Origin: Trichlorobacter lovleyi SZ
GTDB taxonomy: Bacteria > Desulfobacterota > Desulfuromonadia > Geobacterales > Pseudopelobacteraceae
Direction: 5' to 3'
DNA: 32,000 nucleotides
Assembly: GCF_000020385.1 (NCBI RefSeq)
Contig: NC_010814.1
Coordinates: 3,840,001-3,872,000 of the forward strand
Shown: piece by piece, positions 3,241 through 21,450 of the stretch
Layout of the letters: the number at the start of each line of letters is the position of its first letter
Numbering within the stretch: position 1 is the stretch's first letter
Notes under the pieces: generated by a model
Seen by the model: the letters and a program-made list of their open reading frames with translations, nothing else
Database searches by the model: none
What the model was told of the DNA's origin: nothing
Position numbers and translations under genes: made by a program

Positions 3241-4462
3241 AACGCAACGCCTCAATCGGGTTCAGACCGGCAGCCTTGCGGGCCGGATAGAAACCAAAAA
3301 AGATCCCCACGGCGCCGGAAAACAGCACCGCCACCGTAATGGCCAGCGGTGATATCAGGGTAGGCCAGGAGAGCATCCGTGAGACAATGATGGCACCGCC
3401 TGCACCCAACACGATCCCCAGCAGCCCTCCCAACAGCGTCAGCAGTACCGCCTCGGTTAGAAACTGCAGCAGGATATCGTGTTTTTTGGCACCAATCGCC
3501 ATACGGATACCGATCTCGCGGGTCCGTTCGGTGACGGAAACCAGCATGATGTTCATGATGCCGATACCACCGACGATCAGGGAGATGGAGGCCACCGCTC
3601 CCAGCAAGAGCGACATCGCCTTTGACGACTGCTCTGCCACAGCCAGTATTTCCGACAGGTTACGCACGGTAAAATCCGGTTCCTTACCACCGCTAATCCG
3701 ATGGCGCTGGTTCAGCAGGGCATTGATCTCTTTTTCTGCCTTGGGCAACAGCTCTTCACTGCGGGCCTTGACCAGGATAGAACCGACCGTGTCCGGAAAC
3801 TGGCTGCCCATCAGCTTACGCTGGGCCGTACGCAACGGCACGAAGATCACATCATCCTGATCGGTGCCCTGGGGCGACTGCCCCTTGGATTCCAGCACCC
3901 CCACCACAACAAACGGCACCTTCTTGATCCTGATCATCTTGCCCAGCGGGTCTTCAGCTCCGAACAGGTTCTGAACGATCGTACTGCCGATGACACAGAC
4001 CTTGGCAGCGCCGTCGTTGTCGGAGTCGGTAATGCTGCGTCCATTGATTACCGGCCATTCGCGGGCCACAAACAACTCCGGCGTGGCGCCCATCAACAGG
4101 GTGGACCAGTTCTGGTTGCCATAGACGATCTGACCGGAGCTGCGTACCACCGGTGCGGCAAGCTCAACTGAAGGACATTCATTCGTTATCGCCTTGGCGT
4201 CTGAAGCCTTGAGGGTCTGCACCCCGCCGCTACCGCTACGCAGGCCGCCGCTGGTCATGGAACCGGGCAGCACCAACAGGATGTTACTGCCGATACTGGC
4301 GATCTGCTGCGAAATCACATAGCTGGCACCGGAACCGACCGCCATCATGGCGATCACCGCAGCAATGCCGATGATGATCCCCAGCATGGTCAGGAAAGAA
4401 CGCATCTTGTTGATCCGCAAGGCCCGCAGGGCGATGCGCAATGCCTGGACAACGTTGCTCAT
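3233..4462 (-). CDS. MacB/FtsX-family ABC transporter permease (no ATPase domain or ATPase gene nearby)
   Basis: N-terminal TM helix, a large periplasmic MacB-type domain, and a C-terminal FtsX 3-TM bundle ([27 protein letters not shown]). Start chosen at ATG 4462, which gives an ATGA overlap with the macro-domain gene's stop. Confidence 0.9.
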
Positions 4463-4995
4463 GGCTGAAAGGGGATGGCCAGTTGCCGGGCAACAGCCTG
4501 ATAACATTCAAGAGCAGGACTATTGTACTGGATCAGGATGATCCGGTCAAAAGAACCACTGGCCGCTGCAGCCTGCGCCTCCTGCAGTGCAATGGCCGCT
4601 CCGAGTTTCATGGGATAGCCGTATACCCCGCAGCTGATGGCAGGAAAGGCGATACTGCGGATGCCATGCCGGCGAGCCAGTTCCAGGCTGTTGCGGTACG
4701 AGGCGGTCAGCAGCTCCGGTTCGCCTTTGGCCCCATCGGTCCAGACCGGCCCCACCGTATGGATCACAAAGCGGGCAGGCAGGTTGTACCCCTTGGTAAT
4801 GCGGGCCTCACCAGTGGGGCAGCCCCCCAGAGTCGCGCACTCGTTCAGCAGCCCGGGCCCGGCAGCCTTGTGGATGGCACCGTCCACCCCGCCGCCACCC
4901 AGCAGGGTGCTGTTGGCGGCATTGACAATGGCATCAACCGCTAACGTGGTGATATCGCCCTGGATAATCTCTATGACAGGTAAGGACATGGACAT
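4459..4995 (-). CDS. macro-domain protein (O-acetyl-ADP-ribose deacetylase / YmdB-like)
   Basis: 178-aa [41 protein letters not shown] and [13 protein letters not shown] are hallmark macro-domain motifs. Confidence 0.9.
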
Positions 4996-5016
4996 GTTTC
5001 CTGTATTGTTCGGTAA

Positions 5017-5394
5017 TTACGGCTTAAAGACCTTCAGCTCCAACTCTTTGATCACCTTGAAATGTTTGGCGTTGCTGGAAGACAATACCATACCGTTTTC
5101 CGTGGCGGTTGCGGCAATGATGGCATCACCGGCCCGCATGCCGGACGATAGTCCGTACTCTTCCACATAGACCAACGCCCGGTGGCCGATATTCTCTGTC
5201 AACGGCAGGACGGTAAAGCGGAAATCAGCAATAAAACGCTTGATCAGGCGATGCTGTTGTTTATCCTTGGCGCACTGCAGCAGCTCCATGTACGTCTGTA
5301 CAGACAGAAAGCGCTCTTTGGCCGACTCCATCAAGGCCGCAGCCCTGGCATTGCCCCGCTGGACCCAGATGAAGATGTCCGTATCAAAGATCAT
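5017..5394 (-). CDS. vapC: PIN-domain toxin (VapC family)
   Basis: 125-aa ORF starting MIFDTDIFIW, with acidic residues spaced as in PIN domains. Overlaps the upstream antitoxin gene by 11 nt. Local GC is lower than in the neighbours. Confidence 0.85.
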   Translation of the reverse strand: MIFDTDIFIWVQRGNARAAALMESAKERFLSVQTYMELLQCAKDKQQHRLIKRFIADFRFTVLPLTENIGHRALVYVEEYGLSSGMRAGDAIIAATATENGMVLSSSNAKHFKVIKELELKVFKP

Positions 5395-5626
5395 AGCGAT
5401 TGCCCCGCAACTGCTCCATCACCGCTTCTACCGATGGTTCCTGGACAGCGGCATGCATGCCGAAGAATGCATGGTTGCAGATCTTGCCGGTGGCTCCGGT
5501 CTCCTCCAGCGGAATGATGGTGCCCTTTGGCTTGCCATGGTAAAGAATCGTGACATGCTCACGGTTGTCAAGGGCAGCCAGGATGTCGCTGGTTTTGTAG
5601 CGCAGATCAATGATCGAAGCGTTCAT
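5384..5626 (-). CDS. Phd/YefM-type antitoxin
   Basis: About 80-aa ORF (NASIIDLRYKTSDILAALDNREHVTILYHGKPKGTIIPLEE) typical of Phd/YefM N-termini. GGAG (5636-5633) sits 6 nt before ATG 5626, so I prefer this start to ATG 5632. Confidence 0.8.
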   Translation of the reverse strand: MNASIIDLRYKTSDILAALDNREHVTILYHGKPKGTIIPLEETGATGKICNHAFFGMHAAVQEPSVEAVMEQLRGNRYDL

Positions 5627-5656
5627 GGTCATCTCCAGAATGTCTCGTTACAGATA

Positions 5657-5685
5657 GACATAAGCTTAAAGCAGGTACGTGTCAA
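5657..5685 (-). promoter_or_regulatory. putative promoter of the vapBC-like pair
   Basis: TTGACA (5685-5680), 17-nt spacer, TATGTC (5662-5657). A short inverted repeat TGTCT..AGACA lies downstream and could be an operator. Confidence 0.35.
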
Positions 5686-5720
5686 TAGTGGAGAATCGTC
5701 TCACAGCTCTGTACTGCCAT

Positions 5721-6488
5721 TCACCGCCCGCGCTGTTCAAACAACAGCTCCACCACGTTGCGGACATAGCGTTCATCCGACACCCCCTCCACCGCTTCAG
5801 CGGGAAAGGTCACCTGGCTGCGGAACAGGGCTGCCAGTTCACGGAACAGTTCCAGCCGGGCAGCCGGGTCAAGTTCTTCCCGGCGGATCAGGGCACGCAA
5901 GGCAATGGCCCCTTCCTCCCGGCTGACCTTCTGCCGCAGACGGGCCACCAGATGGGGATAGGCGGCCAGGGAGTTGAACTTCTCTGTGCCAAGCTGTTCC
6001 AGATCAGGCAGCTGCACCTTGGGGGTGCGGATCACGATTGTTCCGGCAGCCAGGTCACCCAGACGCTGGCATTTACGGCTGGTCAGGCTGGCAATCCCCC
6101 CCACCAGATAGAGCGCGGGCAGCGAATCAACGATCCGCAGCAGGTTTCTGATCACCACCTGACTGAACTGCAGCTTCAAGCCCTGTTCATCCATGACCCG
6201 CAAATGCAGCAGACGCTTGCCCACGGTCTGCCCCTGCCAGTACCATTCACAGCCGATGCCGTAGCCGATGGAGATCACAAAGCCGGACAGAATCGCCAGG
6301 GCCATAAAGATATCCTGACTGATCAGCGCAAACAGCCTTAAGACAGTGCTGATGGTGGTTGAGGCCACAGAAATGCAGGCAAAATCCACCATCAACGCCA
6401 GCAGACGGCTGGTGGGACCGGCCAAAAGCAGGGAGAAGCGGATACCCTCCGGGGTGCGGATCTGCAGGGTGGTGGTCTGTTCAGCCAC
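5721..6488 (-). CDS. RDD-family membrane protein (last gene of the MoxR operon)
   Basis: RDD-type layout (AGPTSRLLALMVDF ... TVGKRLLHLRV ... RLGDLAAGTIVI). GTG at 6488 overlaps the upstream stop (GTGGCTGA). The upstream ATG at 6623 would lie deep inside the preceding gene. Confidence 0.75.
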   Translation of the reverse strand: MAEQTTTLQIRTPEGIRFSLLLAGPTSRLLALMVDFACISVASTTISTVLRLFALISQDIFMALAILSGFVISIGYGIGCEWYWQGQTVGKRLLHLRVMDEQGLKLQFSQVVIRNLLRIVDSLPALYLVGGIASLTSRKCQRLGDLAAGTIVIRTPKVQLPDLEQLGTEKFNSLAAYPHLVARLRQKVSREEGAIALRALIRREELDPAARLELFRELAALFRSQVTFPAEAVEGVSDERYVRNVVELLFEQRGR

Positions 6489-7488
6489 GCTTGGCCACCT
6501 TCCCGCCCCGGCCTGAACGGCCCAGAAACAGCACCAACAGGCATAATTCCACCACGCCAAAGGCGATCTTGACACTGTAGGGCAGTACCGGCTCATGGTA
6601 CTGGGAAAAGAACGCCTCCACAATACCGGCCCAGACCAGCATCAGCGCCACCCCGCCGATCAGGGTGGTCAGATCTCCCCAGACCAGCCGCATACGGGCC
6701 ACCAGAGTCAGGCCGCTGCCTTTGCCGATCAGGGTTGTTGCCAGCACCAGACCGGCCTGCCCGGCGATCAGGATAGCCGGTATCTCAATCACCCCGTGGG
6801 GCAGCAGCCAGCCAGCCAGGAAGATCCCCTGCCCGGCAGCCAGGTAATCCAGCACCACCGCCCCCAGAATCACGCCGTTGTAGAACAGCAGGATGATGGT
6901 CCCCACCCCCCAGGTCATGCCGGTGGCCATGCAGGCGATGGAGACCTGTGTGTTGTGGGTCATCAGGCTGCTGGAGAAGGTGGCCTTGTGACCGGCCAAC
7001 CGCTTGCCGGCCTCCTGCTCTTCTTTGGCCACCCGCTCCGCTGGTGAGCCATGCAGATGATCAAACGGCAGCAGCATCCCCTTTTCTTCCGGGGCAACCA
7101 TCAGCACAGCTGCGCCAAAGATCGCCCCAACAATGGTGATCAGCACGGCCAGTTGAAACTGACGGATGTAGCGCCTGAAGGTTTGGGGAAAGGTCTCCTG
7201 CAGCCAGGTGCGGGGCGCCAGACGATGGGCGTTGTCTCTGGTTGAGTGGATCTCGCCATAGGCCCGGGCCACCAGACTTTCCAGGTAGCGACGGAACTCA
7301 AGCGGGGCTGCCAGACCATCAAGCCGGGCCAGACCGGCGCTGGCCCGCTGGTAGAGGTAGTGAAAACGGACAGCGCCGTCAACCCCCAGCCTGCAGGCCG
7401 GATCATCTTCCACCCGTTTCAGCAACCGCTCCAGCTCGTCCCAGAACGGCTTTTCCGCTGCGGTAAATCGCTCCAGATCGATGATCAT
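6481..7488 (-). CDS. SpoIIM-like (DUF95) integral membrane protein
   Basis: 335-aa ORF with a soluble N-terminal helical region followed by about 6 TM helices and the HGVIEIPAILIAG motif of the stage II sporulation protein M family. ATGA overlap with the DUF58 gene. Confidence 0.75.
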   Translation of the reverse strand: MIIDLERFTAAEKPFWDELERLLKRVEDDPACRLGVDGAVRFHYLYQRASAGLARLDGLAAPLEFRRYLESLVARAYGEIHSTRDNAHRLAPRTWLQETFPQTFRRYIRQFQLAVLITIVGAIFGAAVLMVAPEEKGMLLPFDHLHGSPAERVAKEEQEAGKRLAGHKATFSSSLMTHNTQVSIACMATGMTWGVGTIILLFYNGVILGAVVLDYLAAGQGIFLAGWLLPHGVIEIPAILIAGQAGLVLATTLIGKGSGLTLVARMRLVWGDLTTLIGGVALMLVWAGIVEAFFSQYHEPVLPYSVKIAFGVVELCLLVLFLGRSGRGGKVAKRG

Positions 7489-8819
7489 AGCAGTTGTTTC
7501 CGTTTCACATCCAGGTAGTGGGAGACCAGATCCGCGCTCAACCGTTCATCCTTTACCAGCATGAGCCTGACCCCTTGCAGACGAAGACTCTGCTGCAGTT
7601 CCCGCAGTTGATGCCAGGTCAGGTGCCCGGCCAGATGGCGATAGAGTTCATCATTGCTCTGCAGGGTGGCAGTGCTGAACAGCGGGGCAGCCGTGGGCGG
7701 TTGCGGCATGGCAACGCAGATCAGGTGGCGGGACAGGATACGGATGGCCCTGACAAAATCCTCGGCCAGGGCCGGTTCATCCAGCGGTGCGATAAAGATC
7801 AGCAGGGCTCGCCGACGCAGACGGGCAGCCATGAAGGTGGCCAGTTCAGCAAAGGAGGGGTTGTCTTCACCAGGCTGCACCGTGTAGAGCAGGTCGCGGC
7901 AGTGGCCAAAGTGGGTCTTGCCGGTCTTGGCCCGCACAAAGCCCTGTACCCGGCTGCCAAAGGCGGCCACCCCGAACAGATCTCCCTGGCGCTGGGCCAC
8001 TGACCCCAGGATCAGGGCGGTACGCACCGCCTGCTCAAGAAACGGTTCACTGCCCCCTTCAGCAGTGGGTACCGGCCGACCGCTGAGCCGGGAACTGTCG
8101 ATCAGCAGGTAGACCTCCTGGGTCCGTTCAATCTGATACTCTTTGGTGATCAGCTGACGACGTTTGGCCGTTGCCTTCCAGTGGATATCCCCCAGACTGT
8201 CGCCGGTCTGATACTGACGCAGCCGATCAAACTCCCGTCCCTGGCCCCGCTGACGCTGGGCTTGCAGTTGCCGGTCATTGCGTTCCAGAAACAGACTTGC
8301 CAGACGACGGCGTTCTGCCCGCAGGTTGGGATAGACCCGCAGTTCCGTGCTGATGGTGTGACGGATCTGCAGCTGCCACAAGCGAAAGGGAGAAGCGACC
8401 CGCAAAGAACACTGCATGACCTGAAACCTGCCCCGTTTGGTGCCGGTCAGGGACCAGTCCAGGCAGACCGCATCACCACCTTTGGCCAGCTTCAAGCGGG
8501 TCTCCCTGAAGGGCGATACAAAACCGGCGGGCAGTGCCAGCCCCACCTGCAGGTCAAAGCCAGCCTGATTGCTAGCCTGGATGGTTATCCCCAACTGGCC
8601 GGCCCGACCGCAGACCAGCGACAAACGCGGGGGGGCCGTAACGGTCAACCGGTTGCGGTAGCGGAACAAAATCAGCAGATCAGCAAGCGCAACCATCCCC
8701 ACCAGCAACGGCACAAACAGCAGCAGCGGCCGGAACTGGGGGGTAACCGCATACAGCAGCGCAGCCGGAATCAGGGTGGCGGCAACAAGCCGCAGTATGG
8801 CCGGGGCCGGGATGATCAC
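7485..8819 (-). CDS. DUF58 (vWA-like) protein
   Basis: 444-aa ORF with two N-terminal TM helices and the signature GREFDRLRQYQTGDSLGDIHWKATAKRRQLITKEY followed by a vWA-like fold. ATGA overlap with the MoxR gene. Confidence 0.85.
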   Translation of the reverse strand: MIIPAPAILRLVAATLIPAALLYAVTPQFRPLLLFVPLLVGMVALADLLILFRYRNRLTVTAPPRLSLVCGRAGQLGITIQASNQAGFDLQVGLALPAGFVSPFRETRLKLAKGGDAVCLDWSLTGTKRGRFQVMQCSLRVASPFRLWQLQIRHTISTELRVYPNLRAERRRLASLFLERNDRQLQAQRQRGQGREFDRLRQYQTGDSLGDIHWKATAKRRQLITKEYQIERTQEVYLLIDSSRLSGRPVPTAEGGSEPFLEQAVRTALILGSVAQRQGDLFGVAAFGSRVQGFVRAKTGKTHFGHCRDLLYTVQPGEDNPSFAELATFMAARLRRRALLIFIAPLDEPALAEDFVRAIRILSRHLICVAMPQPPTAAPLFSTATLQSNDELYRHLAGHLTWHQLRELQQSLRLQGVRLMLVKDERLSADLVSHYLDVKRKQLL

Positions 8820-9781
8820 CGGGGAACCGTGACCTCCTGCAGGATTGAACCGATCACCTCACCAGGGGTCAGCCCCTCGATCTCGTAATCTGGCTGCAGA
8901 ATCAGGCGATGCTCCAGCACCGGCAAGGCCATCATCTTGATATCATCCGGGGTAATGAAGTCACGGCCTGCCACGGCAGCAGCAGCCCGGGCAGCCAGGA
9001 TCAGCGACTGTGAGGCACGGGGACCACCCCCCAGCAGCACGGCATGATGGCTGCGGGTGGCCCGCACCACCTCCAGGGCATAGGCGGCAATCTCATCCTG
9101 CACCACCAGCGTCATCAAGGCCTGCCGCAGGGTTACCAGATCATCGGCACTGATCACACAACGGACCGTATCACCGGCCAGCACCGTCTCCGGCGCATCG
9201 CTCCCCAGGGTACGCCGCACCAGGGCCAGCTCCTCTTCGCGGGTCGGCGGCGGCATGGTGATCTTCAGCATGAAGCGGTCCTTCTGGGCCTCCGGCAACG
9301 GGTAGGTCCCTTCAAACTCCACCGGGTTCTGGGTGGCAAAGACCGTAAAACTGGCAGGCAGGTTGTAGCTCTTGCGGTCAATGGTCACCAGCCGTTCCTG
9401 CATGGCCTGCAGCAGGGCAGACTGGGTCTTGGACGGGGCGCGGTTGATCTCATCGGCCAGCAGGAAGTTGCAGAAGATCGGGCCGGGGTTGAGCACAAAC
9501 TCGTTTTCCTTCATGTTGAAGATGTTTGAGCCGGTGATGTCGGTAGGCATCAGGTCCGGGGTGAACTGAATCCGGGAAAAACGGCCGCCCACCACCTTGG
9601 CCAGGGTCCGCACCAGCAGGGTCTTACCGATCCCCGGCACCCCTTCAATCAGGGCATGTTGCCCGGTCAGCAGCGCCACCAGCACCCGGTCAATCACCTC
9701 ATGCTGGCCGATGATCACCTTACCCAGCTCTCCCTTTAACGCCTGTACCACTGCGATCAACTGTTGCAACCCCTGGTTCAT
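8816..9781 (-). CDS. MoxR-family AAA+ ATPase
   Basis: 321-aa ORF. Walker A GVPGIGKT, Walker B LLADEINRA, and the sensor region VFATQNPVEFEGTYPLPEAQKDRF diagnostic of MoxR. Confidence 0.95.
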   Translation of the reverse strand: MNQGLQQLIAVVQALKGELGKVIIGQHEVIDRVLVALLTGQHALIEGVPGIGKTLLVRTLAKVVGGRFSRIQFTPDLMPTDITGSNIFNMKENEFVLNPGPIFCNFLLADEINRAPSKTQSALLQAMQERLVTIDRKSYNLPASFTVFATQNPVEFEGTYPLPEAQKDRFMLKITMPPPTREEELALVRRTLGSDAPETVLAGDTVRCVISADDLVTLRQALMTLVVQDEIAAYALEVVRATRSHHAVLLGGGPRASQSLILAARAAAAVAGRDFITPDDIKMMALPVLEHRLILQPDYEIEGLTPGEVIGSILQEVTVPR

Positions 9782-10947
9782 CGTCCTGTCCTCTCTGCCC
9801 GCAGCCGGGCTATCCGCTGATACCGGGTAACCGGATCATCCTGCGCGGTCATTGCATCGCTTAACTCTTTGCGCAACTCTGCATCCTGCTGTAACTCACG
9901 TTTAAAACTCTTCTGCCATTCCTGACAGCAGACCTTCAGCAGCTGATTGGCCGGAATACTCCGTTGCAGCAGGTTCACCAGACCGCTGAAGCTGTCATGG
10001 CTCACCCCGACGGCCGGATCACGGGATGCCACAGCACCAGCCGGGTTCAGGGGGATTGACTGCTGCCAGATATAGAGCCCTGCCATCATCAGCAGCACCC
10101 CGATCAGCGGCAGCAGGCCAAAACGGCGGGCCAGCGCCATGATGCCGCCCTGCTCACTCACCCCAAGATGGAATTCATCAAAGATAATCCTGTGCTGCTC
10201 ACCCAGCAGCCAGGCCAGCAGCGCTGCCTGACGGTCTGCCTTGAGTGCCTCGTTACTGAAGAGGGAGCTGTCTGACACCAGCACCAGACTGCCGCTGCCG
10301 ATGCTGCGTTCCAGTACCACCGCCTTGCCATCAACGGCATAGATGGTACGCCAGCCGGTGGGTGGCGGCTGCAGGGTCAGGCGGGACAGCAGGCGGATCT
10401 CTGCCGACAGGGCCAAACCAGGTTCAGTCAGGTTCGCCTTGATCAGTTGCTTGTCAGGAGCAGACTCTGATACGGGCAGGTAGCCTGCACTGATGCCCCA
10501 GGCGGTATCCGGTGCTTTAACTGCCTTTGGTGTCTTTGCATCAGCAGGTTTTGGTGCCGGCACAGGTCTACACTCCGGCACGGTGATGACCGGATTGAAG
10601 GCAACCACCACCCGGTTCCCAGCCGCAACCAGCTGATCGACCTCGGCAATCTCTTGCTTATCAGCAGTCGTCAGCTCGTGGTGCTGGTTTCCCAGCAGCA
10701 GGATCGTGCTTGCGGTTACCTTCTGATTGGCCAGAGAGCGGTAATTGCGCTCCACCTTGACCCCGCCGGTACGCTCCAGGGCCTGGTACAGCGCCATGCT
10801 TCCCAAGGGATCGCTGCGCAGGGATGAACCTGCCGGAAAGATATCCCCGGCTTCAAAACGCAAGGCAAAGAGCTGGTAGAGGGAGGCAGCCGCCAGAACC
10901 AGCAACAGGCAAAAGGTGAGGATCAGCAGTTTACTGCGTGCGGACAT
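9778..10947 (-). CDS. DUF4350-like membrane-anchored protein
   Basis: N-terminal TM anchor (KLLILTFCLLLVLAAASLY), a large extracytoplasmic domain, a second TM helix near residue 290 and a C-terminal tail. Position between the DUF4129 and MoxR genes matches the conserved neighbourhood. Start at ATG 10947 (ORF track gives 10998). Confidence 0.6.
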   Translation of the reverse strand: MSARSKLLILTFCLLLVLAAASLYQLFALRFEAGDIFPAGSSLRSDPLGSMALYQALERTGGVKVERNYRSLANQKVTASTILLLGNQHHELTTADKQEIAEVDQLVAAGNRVVVAFNPVITVPECRPVPAPKPADAKTPKAVKAPDTAWGISAGYLPVSESAPDKQLIKANLTEPGLALSAEIRLLSRLTLQPPPTGWRTIYAVDGKAVVLERSIGSGSLVLVSDSSLFSNEALKADRQAALLAWLLGEQHRIIFDEFHLGVSEQGGIMALARRFGLLPLIGVLLMMAGLYIWQQSIPLNPAGAVASRDPAVGVSHDSFSGLVNLLQRSIPANQLLKVCCQEWQKSFKRELQQDAELRKELSDAMTAQDDPVTRYQRIARLRAERTGR

Positions 10948-12571
10948 CGCTGGTGATCCTCCGGTGGTTATCCAGGTAACTGCGAACAGTCTCGTCATCC
11001 GGCAGGTGCATACCGTACCAGGCTGCCTCGAAGATCCGCAGGTTCAGAGAAAACGCCTCGCTTAACCGGGGCATGGCATGGCTGAAGCGGAGCAGTTCCC
11101 GCTCGTAGTCGTGGTTGGTCTTGCAGCGGGCGATAGTCACCAGCTTTGCATCAGCCAGGGCAGCCAGGGTGGCCAGGTACAACGCCCGCAGCCCCAGACG
11201 CAGCTCTCCCTTTTCCAGCAGCTCCCGGGCCAGGGCCAGCCAGCGTTCTTCGGTCAGTTCACTGGCAATCACCGATTCATCGTGGAGATCAGGCGCCACC
11301 TGCAGGGTGTGCATCGGCAGTTCTGCTTCCGGTTCAGGGGTGCGACGCAGTCGACGCCAGGCAAAGACCGCGCCAAAGCAGAGCAACAACGCCAGCAGGA
11401 GATACATCAGCAGCAGCGCGATGTCTGAAAAACTGCCGCCCCAGCCAGGTTTCACCCCGGAAAATGACGGCTTGGGCAGTTTTTTAAACAGCCACTTGAT
11501 GGCATCACCGATCCAGCCTCCCACTGTAACCGCAGTATCCTGAATCCAGGTAATGATGGACTGCATGAAACCTGGCAGCTCCCTCTTTTCCAGCTGGTGG
11601 TGCTCCCGTGGCAGACGCCAGGCAAAACGGGGATCTTTGATCACCTGTTCAACAGAACGGTCAAGCCGGGCTGCGCGTTGCTGCAGCTGTTGTTGCGGTT
11701 CAACAACCGGCGCAGCAGCAAAAGCAGGCTGACTGCCGCAGATGACACAACTGAAAGCAACCAGAAGCACCGGCAGGGTTGCCCGTTCCGCAACCGTCTT
11801 GATCTGGGCCCGCAGATCAGCACCACTGGATAATGATTCTCCATAGTGACAGCGCAGCACGTAGCAGGCCTTGACCAGCGGATCAAGGCAGAGCTGGGTA
11901 AGCGCCACAATCGCAGCCCAGAAGGTGGAATTAAGCAGCATCCGGTTACTGCGGGTGAAGATGGTCTCAATCCCGAACAGGCTCTTGAGCAGGTGGGGCA
12001 GGAAGTAAACGCCAACCGCAATATTGGCAAACAGTACCAGAAAGACAAGTGACAACAGGGCCAGCAGCAGATGGTTCTGACCGGGCCAGAGCAGGGCCAG
12101 ACGGCGTGATTTGCGTTGCACGGTACGCCAGTCCGGGCCACCCGGCACGGTGATATTCTGGAAAAAGGCATAGCACCAGCCAAACGGCAGGGTTATCAGA
12201 GCGGCCAGCGGCAGGATGATAAAGCCCCAAGGCTGCAGCCCGCCCTGCACCATGACACTAGCGGTAACTGAAGGCAGCTCGGCAGCCCCCCCCAGTTGCA
12301 TCAGCAGACGACCACTGAAACGGCTTTGCCAGACCTTCATCCAGATGAACAGAAGCGACAGGGCCAGTGCCCCTCCGGCCAGCCGCTGATCTGCATCAGC
12401 GTTACGGCTCATATCAGCCCAGAACCAGAGCAGCACCAGCATAAACGGCACAGTGCCCAGATAATAACAGGCCAGGGTGTCCAGAGGAGCCTGGCGCAGC
12501 AGGGCGGTGGCCTGCTCCAGCAGCTCTACAGCCCCGATCCCTTTTTCACGGCTTCTGGGGCGCAGGATCAT
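10931..12571 (-). CDS. polytopic membrane protein with C-terminal DUF4129-like domain
   Basis: 546-aa ORF with about 6 N-terminal TM helices, one late TM helix, then a C-terminal helical domain (RALYLATLAALADAKLVTIARCKTNHDYEREL ... FEAAWYG) resembling DUF4129. ATGA overlap with the upstream gene. Confidence 0.6.
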   Translation of the reverse strand: MILRPRSREKGIGAVELLEQATALLRQAPLDTLACYYLGTVPFMLVLLWFWADMSRNADADQRLAGGALALSLLFIWMKVWQSRFSGRLLMQLGGAAELPSVTASVMVQGGLQPWGFIILPLAALITLPFGWCYAFFQNITVPGGPDWRTVQRKSRRLALLWPGQNHLLLALLSLVFLVLFANIAVGVYFLPHLLKSLFGIETIFTRSNRMLLNSTFWAAIVALTQLCLDPLVKACYVLRCHYGESLSSGADLRAQIKTVAERATLPVLLVAFSCVICGSQPAFAAAPVVEPQQQLQQRAARLDRSVEQVIKDPRFAWRLPREHHQLEKRELPGFMQSIITWIQDTAVTVGGWIGDAIKWLFKKLPKPSFSGVKPGWGGSFSDIALLLMYLLLALLLCFGAVFAWRRLRRTPEPEAELPMHTLQVAPDLHDESVIASELTEERWLALARELLEKGELRLGLRALYLATLAALADAKLVTIARCKTNHDYERELLRFSHAMPRLSEAFSLNLRIFEAAWYGMHLPDDETVRSYLDNHRRITSDVRTQ

Positions 12572-12888
12572 GGGCGCTCCTCGAACAGCCGCCAGATATG
12601 GCCTTCATGGAACGATGAGGGAATCAGCAGCAGGCCCCGGCCTGCCATAAAAAAGCAGAACCAGAGGATCAGCAAACCGATTCCAAGTTGCATAACACCG
12701 GCCAGAATGCTGCGAAAACGGAAAGAGCGGACCGTATCAACCGGTTGTCCCAGACAACGGCCGCAGGTCATCCGCCCGGCATGTTCCGTGACACATTCAC
12801 GGCAGAAAAAGTTGCCGCACCGGCCGCAGCGGGCCACGGCCTCGCGGTTGGCATGGTTAAAACAGCGCTGGACCTTCAGACTGCTCAT
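12568..12888 (-). CDS. B-box-type zinc-finger membrane protein
   Basis: 106-aa ORF. CFNHANREAVARCGRCGNFFCRECVTEHAGRMTCGRC (C-x2-H-x7-C-x2-C-x4-C-x2-C ...) followed by one TM helix. 4-nt overlaps on both sides. Confidence 0.6.
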   Translation of the reverse strand: MSSLKVQRCFNHANREAVARCGRCGNFFCRECVTEHAGRMTCGRCLGQPVDTVRSFRFRSILAGVMQLGIGLLILWFCFFMAGRGLLLIPSSFHEGHIWRLFEERP

Positions 12889-13436
12889 GGGGTTGGGGGA
12901 GCTGCCGGAGCGGAGGGAGTGCCTGTCCGTTGATTGTCATAGCGGGAGAGCAATTCACTGCGCAGCATACTGCCCTGTTGGGCTGCCACCAGAGGCCGCA
13001 GTTCCTTGATCAGACGGGTTACCTTGCGTGAACGTTGCAGAGCAGGAATGTCAATCAGCCCCAGCGGGGTCAGCAGATTGGTCTTGCAGGTGGGGCCTTT
13101 GACCAGGTTAACCAGAAAAACGATCAGCAGCGGTGTACCGACAATAAAGAGTGCAATGGTACCGGGAGAAGAAATATCGTTGGTACTTAGAATACCAATG
13201 CCAAACAGGGCCAGCAGACTACCAAGGATTACATTCAGCAGCATCCAGGTTCTGGTGCGCCGGGCAACCACTCCCTTGAGGTCTTTCAGATAAATCCGCA
13301 CATACTCTTCGGTATATCCGGTGGATTTGACTGACAGCAGATGATCATCCCCGAGCCAGAGTGAGCAGCGCATGATCATGGCAATGGTGCCATGGGCTAT
13401 ACGACGGTATTTGATGGGCCGGGCCGGGCTGCTCAT
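12885..13436 (-). CDS. hypothetical two-TM membrane protein
   Basis: 183 aa from ATG 13436 (ATGA overlap with the upstream stop). Soluble N-terminal module, two adjacent TM helices, and a Pro/Ala-rich tail. I recognise no family. Confidence 0.5.
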   Translation of the reverse strand: MSSPARPIKYRRIAHGTIAMIMRCSLWLGDDHLLSVKSTGYTEEYVRIYLKDLKGVVARRTRTWMLLNVILGSLLALFGIGILSTNDISSPGTIALFIVGTPLLIVFLVNLVKGPTCKTNLLTPLGLIDIPALQRSRKVTRLIKELRPLVAAQQGSMLRSELLSRYDNQRTGTPSAPAAPPTP

Positions 13437-14032
13437 GAGTTCCACTTTTGAAACAGAAAGATACACAGGACCAGCCAGCCAATGATCTGCAGTGCGGAAA
13501 ACAGCAGGGCCAGGATCAGGCGGATCCTGGTGCGGGGCAGGATACTGGAAGGTTTGCGCCAGGCGGTGATTGCAAGATAAAAAGCGATCGGCGCGGTGAT
13601 CAGGGTTATGGGCCAGATCAGGAGCGGTAGAAAGGTTGTATTCAGGGCAATGCTGTCATGCAGGGTCCGTTTGGTGACCAGTTCAGAAAGCTGTTCGTTC
13701 TGGCGGCCCTGTTCCAGGCAGACCGGACAGAGACAGCGTCCGGCCAGATCAATCTCACAGAGACTGCAGATAAAACGGCCACAACTGCTGCAGATCTTCA
13801 CCGCCTGTTTGTCCGGGTGATAGAAACAGCTCGCTTCACCCTCGGTTACCTGCAGACCGACAGTGCCACCTTCATGCAACGGTCTCAGGATTGCCGGAAA
13901 CAGTTCAACCTGCAGCTGTATTGAACAATGCGGGCAGTGGATCGATTCGCCACTGTTGCAAAGCGCTGCCGGTATTGGTGTGTGACAGGCGCTGCATAGC
14001 AGGGGGAAAAGCGAACGTTCACCAGGGCTCAT
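13433..14032 (-). CDS. zinc-ribbon plus B-box membrane protein
   Basis: 199-aa ORF. CSAC..CPHC ribbon, then CFYHPDKQAVKICSSCGRFICSLCEIDLAGRCLCPVC, which is paralogous to the 12568-12888 B-box, followed by 2-3 TM helices. The start overlaps the upstream stop (TAATG). Confidence 0.6.
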   Translation of the reverse strand: MSPGERSLFPLLCSACHTPIPAALCNSGESIHCPHCSIQLQVELFPAILRPLHEGGTVGLQVTEGEASCFYHPDKQAVKICSSCGRFICSLCEIDLAGRCLCPVCLEQGRQNEQLSELVTKRTLHDSIALNTTFLPLLIWPITLITAPIAFYLAITAWRKPSSILPRTRIRLILALLFSALQIIGWLVLCIFLFQKWNS

Positions 14033-14919
14033 TACTTGAAAATCACCCTGGTGTTGCAGATCCGGTCGTGCAGGGTTCGTTTTTCATCATCAAAGGCAGC
14101 CATGATATAGCCGATCAACAAGATCATACCGCTCAACATCTCGGCGAAATAACGCCCCACCGCCCTGCCGGCGCTGAGCTTGTCGCCCTCGGCAGTCACC
14201 ACCTTCAGACCGCAGGCCATCTTGCCGGGGGTTGCCTGATATTTCCCACTCAAAAAGTAGACGTTGTAGGCAATACCGACCCCGACCTGGATACAGACAT
14301 TCATGATTGCCGCAACAATTGCCATCTGAGGAGAGCTGTTTGAGGCAATAAGGAATGTTGTGGCCATGGTGGTGGCAAAATTCACCACCCAGAGGATAAT
14401 ACCGTCAATAAATTTTGCCCCGAAGCGGATCCAGAAACCGGCATAACGCAAGTCACCGGTATTTCCCATCCCCATGGCCAGCATCTGGACGTAGGTCGGC
14501 TTGCAGGAGGCACAGACCAGCTTTTCGCCAAAGCGGACCATCTCGCTTTGGGCAAAGCGTCCCTTGCAGACCGTACAGGTAGCGGAGTTTCTGTCTTCAG
14601 CTGCAGGAACAGGTGGAGGAACGGTATTGATTCCGTTACCTGATGCTGGCTGGCGGTTACGGGCCGCCTCGCAGGTGTTGCAGAGTCCGCCGCTGCCTTC
14701 GATAATTCCGCCACAGGACGGGCAGGGCCGGAGCGGAGCCGGCTCAGCAGGCAACGGTGGTGGCACCGGCGCTACTGGCTGGGCAACGGCAGCTGATTCC
14801 AGTGGGGGGAGCGGAAAACTTTGCTTGCAGCGGGGGCAGTTGATACTGGTGGCGCCGGCTGGCCGTTTTGAATCGTCAAGCTGGCCGCTGAGTCCGCAGT
14901 GGGGACAGGTTATGGTCAT
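14032..14919 (-). CDS. triple zinc-ribbon / RDD-domain membrane protein (first gene of operon)
   Basis: Starts MTITCPHCG..CPRC (MJ0042-type ribbon), then CPSC..CNTC and CTVC..CASC ribbons, then an RDD domain (YAGFWIRFGAKFIDGIIL ... RTLHDRICNTRVI). AGAGG lies 6 nt before ATG 14919. The longer ORF start at 14982 would cover the promoter. Confidence 0.75.
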   Translation of the reverse strand: MTITCPHCGLSGQLDDSKRPAGATSINCPRCKQSFPLPPLESAAVAQPVAPVPPPLPAEPAPLRPCPSCGGIIEGSGGLCNTCEAARNRQPASGNGINTVPPPVPAAEDRNSATCTVCKGRFAQSEMVRFGEKLVCASCKPTYVQMLAMGMGNTGDLRYAGFWIRFGAKFIDGIILWVVNFATTMATTFLIASNSSPQMAIVAAIMNVCIQVGVGIAYNVYFLSGKYQATPGKMACGLKVVTAEGDKLSAGRAVGRYFAEMLSGMILLIGYIMAAFDDEKRTLHDRICNTRVIFK

Positions 14920-14954
14920 GGATACCTCTGAAAATAGGGTGCCGATTTTGAGGT

Positions 14955-14982
14955 AGTCTAACGCAGCTTTCGGAATTGTCAA
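14955..14982 (-). promoter_or_regulatory. sigma70-type promoter of the ten-gene MoxR operon
   Basis: TTGACA (14982-14977), 16-nt spacer, TAGACT (14960-14955), about 35 nt upstream of ATG 14919. Confidence 0.5.
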
Positions 14983-15050
14983 ATCCCGTCAACCTGTGCG
15001 GCAATCAGGGAATAACAATCCAAAGACTGTTCGCTGTAAAGAAAACGAAA

Positions 15051-15896
15051 CTACAAACTCCGTAACAACGCCAGGTTGACCTGATCCATGGCATCATCAT
15101 CCCCCTTGGGAGTTTCCAGAATTTTGGGGACCGTGATGAAGCGCGGATCATGCATGATGAAACGGAACGGCTCCAGCCCCAGGGTACCCTGGCCGATATG
15201 CTCATGGCGGTCAACGCGGCTGCCCAAGCCTTTTTTGGAGTCATTGAAGTGGAAACAGAGCAGCCGTTCCAGCCCCAGCAGCCGGTCAAACTGCGCCATG
15301 ACATCGGCGTACCCTTCCGGGGTGGCGGTGTTGTAACCTGCGGCAAAGGTGTGGCAGGTATCAAAGCAGATCCCGAACCGGTCAGGATATTTTGAGCCGT
15401 TGATGATGGTCTGCAGCTCCTCAAAGGTACGTCCCAGATTGGTACCCTGTCCGGCAGTGGTCTCCAGCAGCACCAGACCTTCATACTCCGGGGTCTGTTC
15501 AAAGAGCTGGTCAAAGGCGCTGATTACCCGTTCCAGGCCTGCCTCAGGCGAATCGGTGGTGTGGGAACCGGGGTGCATCACGATCTTGTTGATCCCCAGC
15601 CGGGCACAGGTGGCCATTTCATCTCCGAAGGCTGCCAGGCTCTTGTCACGGGTATCCCCCGCCGGTGCCGCCAGGTTGATCAGATAGATATCATGGGAAA
15701 TAACTTCATGCAGACCGGAAGCGGCAAAGCTGCTGCGAAACAGATCCGCATCCTTGTCGCTGACCGGCTTGCCTTTCCACTGGTTGGACGAGCGGGTAAA
15801 GATCTGCAATGTGCCGCAACCGGCAGCAACCGCACGCTCGACGGACTTGTGCAGGCCGCCTGCAATGGACATATGGGCACCGAGATAATCGGACAT
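15051..15896 (-). CDS. nfo: deoxyribonuclease IV (endonuclease IV)
   Basis: 281-aa ORF. GAHMSIAGG, metal-ligand regions HPGSH, LLETTAG, FDTCH, HFNDSK and DRHEHIGQG are typical of Nfo. The start directly abuts the moeA stop. Confidence 0.95.
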   Translation of the reverse strand: MSDYLGAHMSIAGGLHKSVERAVAAGCGTLQIFTRSSNQWKGKPVSDKDADLFRSSFAASGLHEVISHDIYLINLAAPAGDTRDKSLAAFGDEMATCARLGINKIVMHPGSHTTDSPEAGLERVISAFDQLFEQTPEYEGLVLLETTAGQGTNLGRTFEELQTIINGSKYPDRFGICFDTCHTFAAGYNTATPEGYADVMAQFDRLLGLERLLCFHFNDSKKGLGSRVDRHEHIGQGTLGLEPFRFIMHDPRFITVPKILETPKGDDDAMDQVNLALLRSL

Positions 15897-17108
15897 CTAG
15901 ACCTCCACTAACTGTTCGCCCACCAACCGGACCGTAATTTCATCACCGCTTGCGTAGGCCCTGTTGGCAGGCACCAGGGCCAGCGCATCAGAAAGCAGCG
16001 AGGTCCGCAGGATACCGGTTTCCTGGTTACCGGCAGAGGCAACCAGCCAGCGGCCATCCTGCTGTGTCAGCTGTACCCGCAAGAAACGCATGCGGCTGCC
16101 GGCCTTGATCGGCTCCTGTACGGTTGCCGTAAGAGCCGGCCGCAGGATACGCCGGTGTCCCATCATCCGCAGCAAGGCAGGACGGACAAACTGGTCAAAC
16201 GTGATCTGGCTGGCCACCGGATTGCCGGGCAGGCAGAAGACCGGCCGCCCTTCAAACAGGCCAAAGGCAGTCGGCTTGCCCGGCTTGATCGCCACCTTCC
16301 AGAACAGGAACTTGACCCCCAGCTCCTCCAGCACCACCCGCACCAGATCGCGATCACCGGCAGAGATACCGGCGGAGGTCACCAGTACATCGGCCTGCAA
16401 CCCCTGGCGCATCTTTTCCAGATGGGAAAGACGGTTGTCGCGGGCGATCCCCAGAATACGGGGGACGGCACCGGCCTCACGCACCGCTGCAGCCAGTGTG
16501 GTGGTGTTACTGTTAATCAGTTGGGCCGGTCCAGGCGGCGTACCGATCTCAACCAGTTCATCTCCGGTTGACAGTACAGCAACCGTTGGACGGCGCTGCA
16601 CCAGCACGGAGGGTCTGCCGCAGGAGGCCAGCAGCGAGATCTCCGATGGCCGCAACACGCTACCGGCCTTCAGGATCTGCTCTCCCCGCCGGATATCCTC
16701 ACCCTGACACCTGATATGCTGGCCTGGCTTTACCGTCTCCTTGATCGTGACCTGTTCACCGGAGGTGTCACCGGTTTCCTCCACCGGCACCACGGCATCG
16801 GCACCGGCCGGCACCGGCGCCCCGGTCATGATCCGTACCGCGCATCCCGCTTCCAGAGAGAGCCCCTCGGCTGAAGCACCGGCCGGCAGATACCCGGTTA
16901 CCCGCAGCTTGCACGGGATGGTCAGGCAATCGTCAGAGCGGACCGCATACCCATCCATGGCGGAATTGTCCCAGAGCGGCAGATCCCAGGGGGAGCTTAT
17001 ATCCTCAGCCAGTACCTGCCCGACGGCCTGCAGCAGCGGGAGCTGTTCGGTGCCCACGCAGGAAACATTGTCAAGTATGGTCTTTAACGCCTCTTCAAAG
17101 GAAACCAT
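15897..17108 (-). CDS. moeA: molybdopterin molybdenumtransferase MoeA
   Basis: 403-aa ORF with MoeA N, MoCF-binding (LSTGDEL ... VTSAGISAGDRD) and C-terminal domains. Confidence 0.93.
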   Translation of the reverse strand: MVSFEEALKTILDNVSCVGTEQLPLLQAVGQVLAEDISSPWDLPLWDNSAMDGYAVRSDDCLTIPCKLRVTGYLPAGASAEGLSLEAGCAVRIMTGAPVPAGADAVVPVEETGDTSGEQVTIKETVKPGQHIRCQGEDIRRGEQILKAGSVLRPSEISLLASCGRPSVLVQRRPTVAVLSTGDELVEIGTPPGPAQLINSNTTTLAAAVREAGAVPRILGIARDNRLSHLEKMRQGLQADVLVTSAGISAGDRDLVRVVLEELGVKFLFWKVAIKPGKPTAFGLFEGRPVFCLPGNPVASQITFDQFVRPALLRMMGHRRILRPALTATVQEPIKAGSRMRFLRVQLTQQDGRWLVASAGNQETGILRTSLLSDALALVPANRAYASGDEITVRLVGEQLVEV

Positions 17109-17110
17109 GG

Positions 17111-18028
17111 CTAATCCCTCGGTACAGCAAGCATTTTATCCAGTGCAGCTTTCGCCTTGATCCTGACATCGTCTGCAACGGTCACCACCGGCTGCATGGT
17201 CTGCAATGCCAGCAGGATATCTTCCAGTGAGGTCAGCTTCATGTTGGGGCAGATCAATGCAGGGGAGGCCAGCACAAACTCCTTGTCCGGGTTATCCTCC
17301 CGTAGCTTGAAGAGAATCCCGGCCTCGGTGCCGATGATAAACTTTTTAGCAGGACTCTTGGCACAATAGAGGTACATACCGCTGGTAGAGCAGACGTGAT
17401 CTGCCAGAGCCGAAACCTCCGGGGCGCATTCCGGGTGACAGATGAACAGGGCATCGGGGTGGGCGGCCTTGATCTCCCGCACTCTGGCAGCAGTCAGACG
17501 TTCATGGGTTGGACAGTAGCCCTCCCAGTAGATAAATTCCTTGTCCGGCAGCTGTTTGGCGATCCAGCGCCCCAGGTTGCGGTCCGGAGCAAAGATCAGT
17601 TTCTGCTCACTCAGAGAACGTACCACCGAGACCGCATTGGCGGAGGTGCAACAGATATCCGATTCGGCCTTGACCGCTGCCGACGAGTTGACATAGGTCA
17701 CCACCGGCAGACCGGGATGCTGAGCCTTCAGCGCCTGCAACCCGGTAACATCCACCATATCGGCCATGGGGCAGCCGGCATCGGCACGGGGCAACAGGAC
17801 GGTCTTGTGCGGCGAAAGAATTGCCGCGGACTCGGCCATAAAATGAACGCCGCAAAAGACGATCACGTCGGCATCGGTCTTGGCCGCCTCCATCGAGAGC
17901 TGCAGCGAGTCGCCGGTGATGTCGGCAATGGCCTGCACTTCGTCACGCATATAGTTGTGAGCCAGCAGCACGGCATTACGTTCCTTGAGCAGATGCCGGA
18001 TTTCAGTACGGATATCAGTAGTGGACAT
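17111..18028 (-). CDS. nadA: quinolinate synthase NadA
   Basis: 305 aa from ATG 18028 (GGAGGGGAC upstream). [20 protein letters not shown] and ICHPEC motifs. The ORF-track extension to 18169 is antisense to tRNA-Pro and I reject it. Confidence 0.95.
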
Positions 18029-18052
18029 GTCCCCTCCAGAGCGACTTGCCTG

Positions 18053-18081
18053 TTGACAAGCGCAGGAATAAAAAGTTATAA
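18053..18081 (+). promoter_or_regulatory. promoter of tRNA-Pro
   Basis: TTGACA (18053-18058), 17-nt spacer, TTATAA (18076-18081), ending about 10 nt before the tRNA 5' end. Confidence 0.55.
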
Positions 18082-18091
18082 AAATCATCTT

Positions 18092-18168
18092 CGGGATGTA
18101 GCGCAGTCTGGTAGCGCACCTGCTTCGGGAGCAGGGGGTCGCACGTTCAAATCGTGTCATCCCGACCA
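18092..18168 (+). tRNA. tRNA-Pro (anticodon CGG)
   Basis: CGGGATG/CATCCCG acceptor, D-arm GCGCAGTCTGGTAGCGC, anticodon arm CCTGC-TTCGGGA-GCAGG, T-arm GCACGTTCAAATCGTGT, and encoded A-CCA. Confidence 0.95.
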
Positions 18169-18180
18169 TCTAAATTCAAT

Positions 18181-21159: not shown

Positions 21160-21450
21160 CTACACAAGCACCCATGACCGTTCTACTATCTGTCTAAACT
21201 CAGCGCTGGTTGTCGCCCAATCCACAACATCCACCCGGAACGGCAGGTTTGATTCGGCAAAGGCATCTTTTAAGTCGGCCAATTGGCGAAAGTCCAGCGG
21301 AACATCTCCCATAACCACCAGATCAAGGTCTGAAAATGGTTTGGCTGTACCGTTAACACGGGAACCAAAGACGCGGACGGTGCGTTCGGGGATCTGTAGC
21401 TGGAGGATCTGACGAACCTCGGCCAGTTGATCTGGTGTCAGGTCAAGCAT
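21160..21450 (-). CDS. minimal nucleotidyltransferase (MNT), HEPN/MNT module partner
   Basis: 96-aa ORF with the GSR-x9-12-DLDL nucleotidyltransferase signature (VFGSRVNGTAKPFSDLDLVV). 8-nt overlap with the HEPN gene. Confidence 0.85.
   Translation of the reverse strand: MLDLTPDQLAEVRQILQLQIPERTVRVFGSRVNGTAKPFSDLDLVVMGDVPLDFRQLADLKDAFAESNLPFRVDVVDWATTSAEFRQIVERSWVLV

Follow-up and report, generated by a model that had tools for sequence, protein, structure and literature searches.

The window examined here, a 32,000-nucleotide (nt) stretch of the Trichlorobacter lovleyi SZ genome (contig NC_010814.1, positions 3,840,001 to 3,872,000), contains a minus-strand operon of ten genes, designated g1 to g10, that pairs a MoxR-family AAA+ ATPase and a DUF58 protein with eight further membrane proteins. 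The ten open reading frames (ORFs) fill positions 5721-14919, and at each of the nine junctions start and stop overlap, by 1, 4, 4, 4, 17, 4, 4, 4, and 8 nt from g1/g2 to g9/g10. The first is a TAATG at 14032; six are 4-nt overlaps of the ATGA/GTGA type (13433-36, 12885-88, 12568-71, 9778-81, 8816-19, and 7485-88); and the remaining two, g5/g6 and g9/g10, lie at 10931-47 and 6481-88. Public gene calls on three contigs with the same locus give ten identical products, of the lengths listed in amino acids (aa) in Table 1. Translation of g1 starts at the ATG at 14919, preceded by AGAGG, and that of g10 at the GTG at 6488; the TTG at 14982, which opens the longest g1 ORF, begins with the first base of a -35 hexamer and is not a start codon. 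By hydropathy, MoxR (g7) lacks transmembrane (TM) segments and the other nine products have them. The DUF4350 and DUF4129 products match T. lovleyi database entries at 96-99% identity, and a public protein is 100% identical to the g3 product. A preliminary description made from the sequence alone had proposed this arrangement, with nine membrane products and MoxR as the only soluble one; the ten genes and nine overlapping junctions proved exact to the nucleotide, in agreement with the public gene calls, and the membrane count proved correct. The operon is a real, strongly conserved MoxR/DUF58 membrane module in expanded form.

Table 1. Candidate promoter and genes of the operon, with window positions, product lengths, and domain matches (E-values follow the family names)
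Feature	Position	Strand	Product	Content
Candidate sigma-70-like promoter	14955..14982	-		TTGACA-16 nt-TAGACT, 10/12 consensus, 36 nt upstream of g1 start
g1	14032..14919	-	295 aa	Pfam RDD 2.2e-26, Zn_ribbon_4 3e-09, TIGR02098
g2	13433..14032	-	199 aa	zf-B_box 5.7e-4, below gathering threshold
g3	12885..13436	-	183 aa, orphan	small N-terminal LWLGxDHLL...ExYxR domain, two TM helices, conserved GPTC...AQG tail
g4	12568..12888	-	106 aa	B-box-like Zn finger + TM; ANCHR-like_BBOX 7e-4, zf-B_box 3.8e-3
g5	10931..12571	-	546 aa	DUF4129 2e-09, at C-terminus only
g6	9778..10947	-	389 aa	DUF4350 1.1e-24
g7	8816..9781	-	321 aa, MoxR-proper AAA+ ATPase	AAA_3 1.9e-61, AAA_lid_2 3.2e-21
g8	7485..8819	-	444 aa	DUF58 (PF01882) 5.8e-17, 62 bits vs cut-off 23.4
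g9	6481..7488	-	335 aa	SpoIIM/DUF95 (PF01944) 5.5e-33, polytopic domain
g10	5721..6488	-	255 aa	RDD (PF06271) 8.9e-19 + conserved C-terminal domain of ~100 aa

How widely is this ten-gene arrangement conserved? One genome per species (185,579 species) was scanned with a single DUF4350 peptide pattern, and confirmation by tblastn left DUF4350 relatives in 348 species; for the best 80 of these 348, six-frame ORFs around the locus were searched with the ten window proteins. Among the 80 loci the g1-g10 series recurs colinear and on one strand. The cassette is complete in 37 of the 40 genome loci whose flanks extend far enough on both sides (one of the three incomplete loci lacks g1 only), and signals of rearrangement came only from contig-end fragments. 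By record title, the 80 loci include ~28 Thermodesulfobacteriota/"Deltaproteobacteria," 26 Verrucomicrobiota, 11 Acidobacteriota, and one each from Nitrospirota, Planctomycetota, Lentisphaerota, and Myxococcota; the remainder are 2 labelled Pseudomonadota/Proteobacteria, 5 unclassified, and 4 bins with dubious labels. These last are metagenome-assembled genomes named Bifidobacterium, Bifidobacteriaceae, Klebsiella, and Promethearchaeota (coverage 0.28), with the gene order found elsewhere; all four names look like the result of mis-binning or mislabelling and not like those of the actual hosts. A metagenome scan anchored independently on g2 found 572 relatives, and all 25 metagenome loci of >=7 kb are colinear with the cassette as far as the contig extends. 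No eleventh conserved neighbour emerged, the commonest extra family occurring in 10 of the 80 loci. Judged by gene order, the cassette spans at least seven phyla as one colinear ten-gene unit and not as its distal six genes alone, so that the preliminary description, which had expected conservation beyond this genome, understated it.

The packing of the genes is equally persistent. Junction gaps projected by homology have medians of -10 to +9 nt in 52-75 loci of other phyla, and because these small values hold at all nine junctions, the tight packing is not due to chance and is itself conserved. The tightest junction is g4/g5, within 30 nt in 62 of 65 loci. Translational coupling alone does not imply the fixed stoichiometry that had been proposed on its basis. 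Median identity to the window proteins across phyla is 64% for MoxR (g7; range 60-68%), 57% for g9 (52-61%), 56% for g10, 44% for g4, and 42% for g8, and is lower for g2 (40%), g5 (38%), g6 (33%), and g3 (29%). Between the nine testable subunits, pairwise-identity vectors correlate at r 0.65-0.90; the highest values belong to g5-g6 and g7-g8 (r = 0.90 for the latter pair; 0.80 for g4-g5), a pattern that fits co-inheritance as a unit and hints at sub-modules within it. In the complete genome of Desulfonema magnum (NZ_CP061800, locus 8187-11065), only homologues of g5 and g6 were found, flanked by unrelated ORFs on the opposite strand; the cassette there is either disrupted or split.

Shorter relatives of the cassette also exist. 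When g9 was compared with plasmids by tblastn, 57 records were recovered: 52 from Rhizobium, 2 from Paracoccus, and 1 each from Nocardia, Nonomuraea, and Prevotella; the same search with g5 found nothing. On the chromid pRspN621c of Rhizobium sp. N621, the genes overlap at their junctions in the order DUF4129 (255 aa)-DUF4350-MoxR-DUF58-SpoIIM-RDD, and Zn-finger genes are absent. Two DUF805 genes immediately precede this set; the nearer one (4168-4617 of that locus), for a membrane protein, stops 4 nt short of the DUF4129 gene, and its product may be a lineage-specific accessory subunit of the Rhizobium form. In the mycobacterium M. chelonae (PMC8191103), BB28_RS01875-01900 comprise DUF4350, MoxR, DUF58, SpoIIM, and RDD genes together with an unassigned membrane protein; they are orthologues of Rv3689-Rv3695, and all six are jointly down 6- to 8-fold in its RNA-seq table. 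The recurrence of the distal six genes, which the preliminary description had noted, is thus confirmed in its order by Rhizobium and, for five families, by M. chelonae. A search of the open-access literature found no functional study of Rv3691-Rv3695/MoxR2, only mentions of co-regulation, co-immunoprecipitation, and biomarkers; nor did open-access text yield a paper on the ten-gene form or on a B-box-like/RDD accessory module, or the searchable literature a biochemical function for the neighbourhood of these families.

What do the ten proteins look like individually? Every product was annotated with Pfam, and all the domains originally proposed were recovered: RDD, Zn_ribbon_4, DUF4129, DUF4350, AAA_3/AAA_lid_2, DUF58, and SpoIIM pass their gathering thresholds, whereas the two B-box matches fall below theirs (20.4 bits for g2 and 17.8 bits for g4, against 24.1). 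An NCBIfam search of the ten products added an MJ0042 zinc finger in g1 only. No solved relative could be found by sequence for 8 of the 10 proteins, and PDB profile searches with g3, g6, g8, g9, and g10 gave chance-level matches only.

The center of the operon is the pair g7-g8, whose adjacency is kept in 66 loci and whose overlap in the window falls at the g7 stop codon. The sole soluble protein and sole recognisable enzyme among the ten, g7 scores 206 bits against AAA_3 (cut-off 27); its Walker A motif GVPGIGKT (residues 47-54), Walker B D110-E111, sensor-1 N152, and arginine finger R169 are each >=90% conserved in 72 homologues. Among solved structures it is nearest to the uncharacterised MoxR protein 2R44 (E 6.9e-76), with midasin next; the AAA domains of midasin are its closest eukaryotic PDB relatives. 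No other prokaryotic proteins are as closely related to the AAA domains of dynein and midasin as MoxR. The DUF58 protein g8, of the family that is MoxR's canonical partner, consists of an N-terminal TM hairpin followed by a vWA-like domain, with conserved HWKATA, D241-x-S243-R-L-S246, and L346-D347. Its metal-ion-dependent adhesion site (MIDAS) reads DxSRLS rather than the canonical DxSxS, the second serine being one position off, and no conserved threonine was identified.

At the 3' end of the operon, g9 and g10 are among the most strongly conserved products. The polytopic domain of g9 is preceded by an N-terminal helical domain, DUF8413 according to public precomputed hits, and seven of its polar residues (H178, N179, N204, H231, E235, E291, and Q296) are kept even in the 30%-identical Rhizobium homologue; the pattern of conservation suggests that this cluster is probably a functional site within the membrane. 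In Bacillus, SpoIIM is a scaffold for septal cell-wall hydrolases; in the operon and its flanks, to which this search was confined rather than extended genome-wide, no SpoIID or SpoIIP hydrolase gene was found. The identity of g10 homologues to the window protein is 48-63% in non-Geobacter loci with all of g2-g10 and 28% in the Rhizobium six-gene form, with R28, D35, D145, and a QRLGD motif invariant.

Pfam describes DUF4129 as lying C-terminal to transglutaminase cores. The AlphaFold2 (AF2) model of g5 (predicted local distance difference test [pLDDT] 79) is all-helical: a polytopic domain at the N-terminus is connected by a low-confidence linker to one TM helix, and a helical bundle forms the C-terminus. 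A Foldseek search of the PDB found nothing significant for this fold (best E 0.5), and its top local matches, over 116-137 columns only, are small HEPN-type helical proteins. The assignment of g5 as a transglutaminase or peptidase was rejected on three counts: no Pfam match, an all-helical model, and no Foldseek match to a transglutaminase-like (TGL) fold. In the model of g6 (pLDDT 78), an N-terminal TM anchor leads into an alpha/beta DUF4350 domain that is predicted to be periplasmic; another TM helix and a helical C-terminal tail follow. In Foldseek the alpha/beta domain matches the GH42/GH164 non-catalytic flavodoxin-like domain, the N-terminal (GIFT) domain of IFT52 (5fms, E 5e-4), and STM1381, all with E between 1e-4 and 1e-3, in agreement with the similarity of DUF4350 to GldG reported by Makarova et al. 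(PMC5898192). The GIFT-type domain gene and the MoxR gene are adjacent and translationally coupled. An expression lead from the Geobacter sulfurreducens DUF4350 protein GSU0208 was dropped; that locus probably holds no such cassette, and the neighbouring GSU0207 is a cold-shock protein.

The proximal genes g1-g4 combine Zn fingers with membrane segments. From its N-terminus, g1 comprises an MJ0042-type Zn ribbon, a proline-rich linker with a second CxxC pair, a conserved membrane-adjacent Zn ribbon, and an RDD domain paralogous to that of g10 (hhalign 94%). In nine loci an extra g1-like RDD gene lies directly 5' of g1, giving an eleven-gene version. In g2 a Zn ribbon is followed by a binuclear, B-box-like Zn finger with eight ligands, and the protein ends in a TM hairpin. 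Across 17 sequences from several phyla, the four ribbon cysteines (C13, C16, C33, and C36) and the finger ligands (C69, H72, C81, C84, C89, C92, C102, and C105; spacing C-x2-H-x8-C-x2-C-x4-C-x2-C-x9-C-x2-C) are invariant. When g2 was searched exhaustively with phmmer over 1.84 billion cluster representatives, 800 clusters (at 50% identity) passed E<=1e-10, and 212 passed E<=1e-30. Homology between their B-box-like fingers makes g2 and g4 paralogues (hhalign 97.9%; phmmer cross-hits). The orphan g3 has no match in Pfam, NCBIfam, or the PDB and is kept in 63 of the 80 loci; its family divides into a short form of 165-207 aa, to which the window protein belongs, and a long form of 323-401 aa with a C-terminal hydrophobic extension; the long form, too, gives only sub-threshold noise against Pfam, and neither form matches the PDB.

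Natural fusions connect the first two of these proteins. Three divergent clusters of the representative library (P0338, P0392, and P0323; 391-472 aa) join g1 to g2; in P0392, residues 70-247 match g1 (45% identity, E 1e-50) and residues 261-449 match g2 (37%, E 3e-44). The N-terminal module of g1 is variable, and GYF_2 takes the place of its Zn ribbon in two of the three fusions. Among the 80 genome loci, no fusion between different components was found, only g2/g4 and g1/g10 paralogue cross-hits. As Rosetta-stone evidence, the fusions support a functional link between g1 and g2, and their architecture implies that the RDD C-terminus and the g2 Zn ribbon would lie on one side of the membrane.

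Is the operon read from its own promoter? The preliminary description placed one at 14982-14955, and a match is indeed present there, the sole minus-strand sigma-70-like match within 5000-16000; as promoter evidence, however, it is no better than chance. Because the number of sigma-70-like sites in the region (3) equals the chance expectation from shuffled sequence (3.2), we regard TTGACA-TAGACT as a consensus match and not as evidence of a promoter. In a Geobacter locus with a 55%-identical DUF4350 gene, g1 likewise has TTGACA at a comparable distance upstream, which may lend the call weak support. The nfo-like gene upstream is on the same strand and ends only 131 nt before g1, so read-through into g1 is possible. 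When the window was scanned with Rfam, neither a riboswitch nor a leader was detected ahead of g1.

The surrounding genes are ordinary chromosomal ones. Upstream of the operon lie nfo-like, moeA, and nadA; downstream are a VapBC-like pair, genes for a Macro-domain protein, a MacB-type permease, and a response regulator, and selB. The VapBC-like pair (5017-5632, minus strand), 88 nt downstream of g10, encodes a weak Phd/YefM-like antitoxin of 82 aa and a PIN toxin of 125 aa and has its own TTGACA-containing upstream region; the Macro-domain gene follows at 4459-4995. On the other side, the longest nadA ORF (17111-18169, minus strand) shares its 5' end with tRNA-Pro(CGG) (18092-18168, plus strand), and since the public NadA call is 305 aa long, the true nadA start lies downstream of the tRNA. 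Further upstream, at 21160-21844 on the minus strand, are an NTP_transf_2 nucleotidyltransferase (96 aa) and an NTase_sub_bind protein (133 aa), labelled by Pfam in an identical public locus, which by these domains resemble an MNT/HEPN-type toxin-antitoxin module.

What might the ten proteins do together? The explanation we favour, to which we give about an even chance, is that they form one self-contained inner-membrane module in which the MoxR/DUF58 chaperone pair acts on a co-encoded membrane complex. We infer the physical complex, its topology, ATP-driven remodelling, and the identity of the client by what seems reasonable analogy, the idea of one machine coming from the precedent of MoxR/vWA pairs. 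On this model g7, of the MoxR-proper type, would be the sole energy-converting part, paired with the vWA-like g8, whose TM hairpin would tether the MoxR hexamer at the cytoplasmic face of the membrane while its vWA-like domain engages the target. That target would, most economically, be the co-encoded membrane complex, and ATP hydrolysis would assemble, mature, or conformationally switch this hetero-oligomer, as in known MoxR/VWA pairs (PMC3893208, PMC13036017). As the most constrained subunits with conserved polar intramembrane residues, g9 and g10 are the best candidates for a working core, likely a channel- or transporter-like unit or a scaffold. The g5-g6 pair, which would supply the sole sizeable extracytoplasmic domain, may tie the complex to the periplasm through the non-catalytic GldG/GIFT-like domain, an oligomerisation or binding fold; g1-g4 would form a cytoplasmic adaptor or regulatory layer whose Zn fingers probably mediate protein-protein contacts.

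Several observations weigh against this explanation. The correlated identity vectors are expected of any co-inherited genes and do not prove contact between the subunits, and the client might be encoded away from the operon instead of being one of its own subunits. Metal-dependent target binding by g8 is uncertain because its MIDAS is non-canonical. The membrane sidedness implied by the g1-g2 fusions conflicts with a simple three-TM topology for RDD, and the charges flanking the g2 hairpin are ambiguous under the positive-inside rule; for these two reasons the topology model is insecure.

Could the operon instead encode an export, secretion, or envelope-biogenesis apparatus? MoxR/DUF58 would then energise or assemble a SpoIIM-RDD-DUF4129 channel, with the GldG/GIFT-like domain receiving cargo. 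We consider this unlikely. The scaffold role of SpoIIM in Bacillus speaks for it, as does the structural likeness of the g6 domain to GldG/GIFT. Makarova et al. (2015) made a comparable prediction for archaeal DUF4350-MoxR-vWA proteins (PMC5898192), and the co-immunoprecipitation of Rv3694c and Rv3695 with the divisome-associated Rv0954 points weakly in the same direction (PMC8093794). However, the operon offers no cargo candidate and no outer-membrane component, secretin, beta-barrel, S-layer, or Ig-like protein; AAA+ MoxR proteins are not known as translocases; and the hosts of the cassette differ greatly in their envelopes. Quite doubtful, in our judgment, is a role in ion or metal transport or handling, with a path through RDD and/or SpoIIM proteins and with MoxR/DUF58 inserting or exchanging a metal centre or gating the path, like NorQD or CoxD. 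An RDD protein of Halobacillus andaensis was reported to be a Na+(Li+,K+)/H+ antiporter (PMC5996927), and metal insertion is driven by known MoxR/VWA pairs (PMC13036017); two RDD paralogues, g1 and g10, bracket the operon, and g9 has its conserved intramembrane H/N/E/Q cluster. Yet the antiporter finding comes from one study of a remote RDD relative, Foldseek found no transporter fold for g5 in the PDB, sequence reveals neither transport nor metal specificity, and ten subunits far exceed the needs of a transporter.

Membrane-proximal quality control or degradation of the TgpA type, in which DUF58 recruits, MoxR unfolds, and a peptidase cleaves, we hold to be improbable. Such a scheme was proposed for MoxR-vWA-TGL operons by Zhang and Aravind in 2012 (PMC3495828), TgpA is critical for the viability of Pseudomonas aeruginosa (PMC3507681), and g5 does carry a DUF4129 domain; but none of the ten proteins has a peptidase or transglutaminase domain, and g5 is all-helical with no match to a TGL fold. 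Because g5 lacks such a core, a TgpA-style proteolytic step has no enzyme in the window, and the protease would need to be supplied in trans. A different objection to the module as a single unit is that g1-g4 and g5-g10 might be two independent modules side by side, as the six-gene core without g1-g4 in Rhizobium and the similar set without Zn-finger genes in mycobacteria could suggest. The conservation data make this very improbable: g5 and g6 follow directly in 25 of 25 loci anchored on g2, g1-g4 precede in 37 of 40 anchored on g6, and the boundary between the two halves, g4/g5, is both the tightest junction and one with an identity correlation of 0.80. An anti-phage or conflict system of the MoxR-vWA type is scarcely credible and was rejected, for although such modules occur in conflict systems (PMC7159879, PMC8195603) and the VapBC-like pair and Macro-domain gene lie just downstream, a PADLOC scan returned nothing specific (only weak generic AAA matches for g7), Pfam found no effector, defence, or peptidase domain in the ten products, sensor and beta-propeller domains are likewise missing, and the high conservation of MoxR (60-68%) and SpoIIM (52-61%), the invariant order, and the non-conserved housekeeping flanks are the opposite of defence diversification.

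A broader reading, which we put forward tentatively, is also possible: the cassette may represent a previously unrecognised class of AAA+-powered inner-membrane machines, a new system of membrane-protein or envelope biogenesis or of transport, with a DUF4350-MoxR-DUF58 core common to Bacteria and Archaea. Were this true, the SpoIIM-like, RDD, DUF4129, and B-box-like TM subunits would be without structural or biochemical precedent. More speculatively, the union of MoxR, a GIFT-type domain, and DUF4129 in one operon could be a prokaryotic parallel to the dynein/intraflagellar transport (IFT)/ciliary-TGL association; the g6-g7 pairing recalls the link between dynein and IFT on which Zhang and Aravind comment (PMC3495828).

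Few AAA+ proteins are as widespread as the MoxR ATPases, and few of these have an assigned client. The cassette is an unusually well-defined case, with ten proteins inherited together as a fixed set, nine of them membrane-bound, in phyla that are environmentally dominant (Verrucomicrobiota, Acidobacteriota, and Thermodesulfobacteriota) and with six-gene relatives in genetically tractable mycobacteria and rhizobia. Solving it would give functions to >=5 families (DUF58, DUF4350, DUF4129, RDD, and SpoIIM/DUF95 outside sporulation), reveal the role of bacterial B-box-like zinc fingers, and test a decade-old prediction of MoxR-driven secretion or remodelling. Its interest lies in being a well-bounded, testable piece of conserved dark matter rather than in any one startling feature.

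How does the cassette compare with known systems? The Bat operon (Bacteroides aerotolerance) starts with MoxR and DUF58, continues with BatA-E, and has been linked to envelope or stress phenotypes; vWA-TM proteins (BatA and BatB) and TPR proteins (BatC and BatE) are among its products. Both operons pair MoxR-DUF58 with several membrane proteins, but the ten products of the window have no VWA or TPR Pfam matches, and the cassette is not a Bat operon. More generally, MoxR-family ATPases typically work with VWA proteins in target remodelling and metal insertion (PMC3893208, PMC13036017). Like NorQ-NorD, CbbQ-CbbO, RavA-ViaA, and CoxD, the window has genes for MoxR and a vWA-type adaptor side by side. 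Pairs of the NorQ-NorD type have identified enzyme clients, soluble or membrane-bound, whereas a client for the window pair is so far proposed by analogy; and, unlike in those pairs, the adaptor here is a membrane-anchored DUF58 protein with a non-canonical MIDAS and the ATPase belongs to the MoxR-proper (AAA_3) branch.

Three further systems are closer in content. The TgpA-type triad of the MoxR-vWA-TGL operon proposal (Zhang and Aravind 2012, PMC3495828; TgpA, PMC3507681) shares with the window a MoxR-proper ATPase and a DUF58/vWA partner, and g5 shares its DUF4129 domain; the polytopic membrane protein of the triad has a transglutaminase-like core, whereas g5 has neither a transglutaminase nor a peptidase core and is accompanied by seven further membrane subunits. 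In Archaea, arCOG01314 (DUF4350) together with a COG0714 ATPase and a vWA protein was predicted to form a "secretion or membrane remodelling complex" (Makarova et al. 2015, PMC5898192). A membrane-anchored DUF4350/GldG-like protein, MoxR, and a vWA-type partner, all from a single predicted operon, are common to that system and the window; the archaeal one has S-layer-like Ig-domain proteins (arCOG02884 and related), which are missing from the window's ten products, and lacks the SpoIIM, RDD, DUF4129, and B-box-like components that the window has. The nearest relative is the six-gene neighbourhood of the Rhizobium chromid, with the same families in the same order as g5-g10 and overlapping junctions. 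The window differs from it in four more upstream genes (one Zn-ribbon-RDD, two B-box-like TM, and one 2-TM orphan), in a larger, polytopic DUF4129 protein (546 vs. 255 aa), and in a SpoIIM protein only 30% identical to its Rhizobium homologue. By gene content and order, then, the cassette of T. lovleyi is best described as an expanded member of this uncharacterised six-gene neighbourhood.

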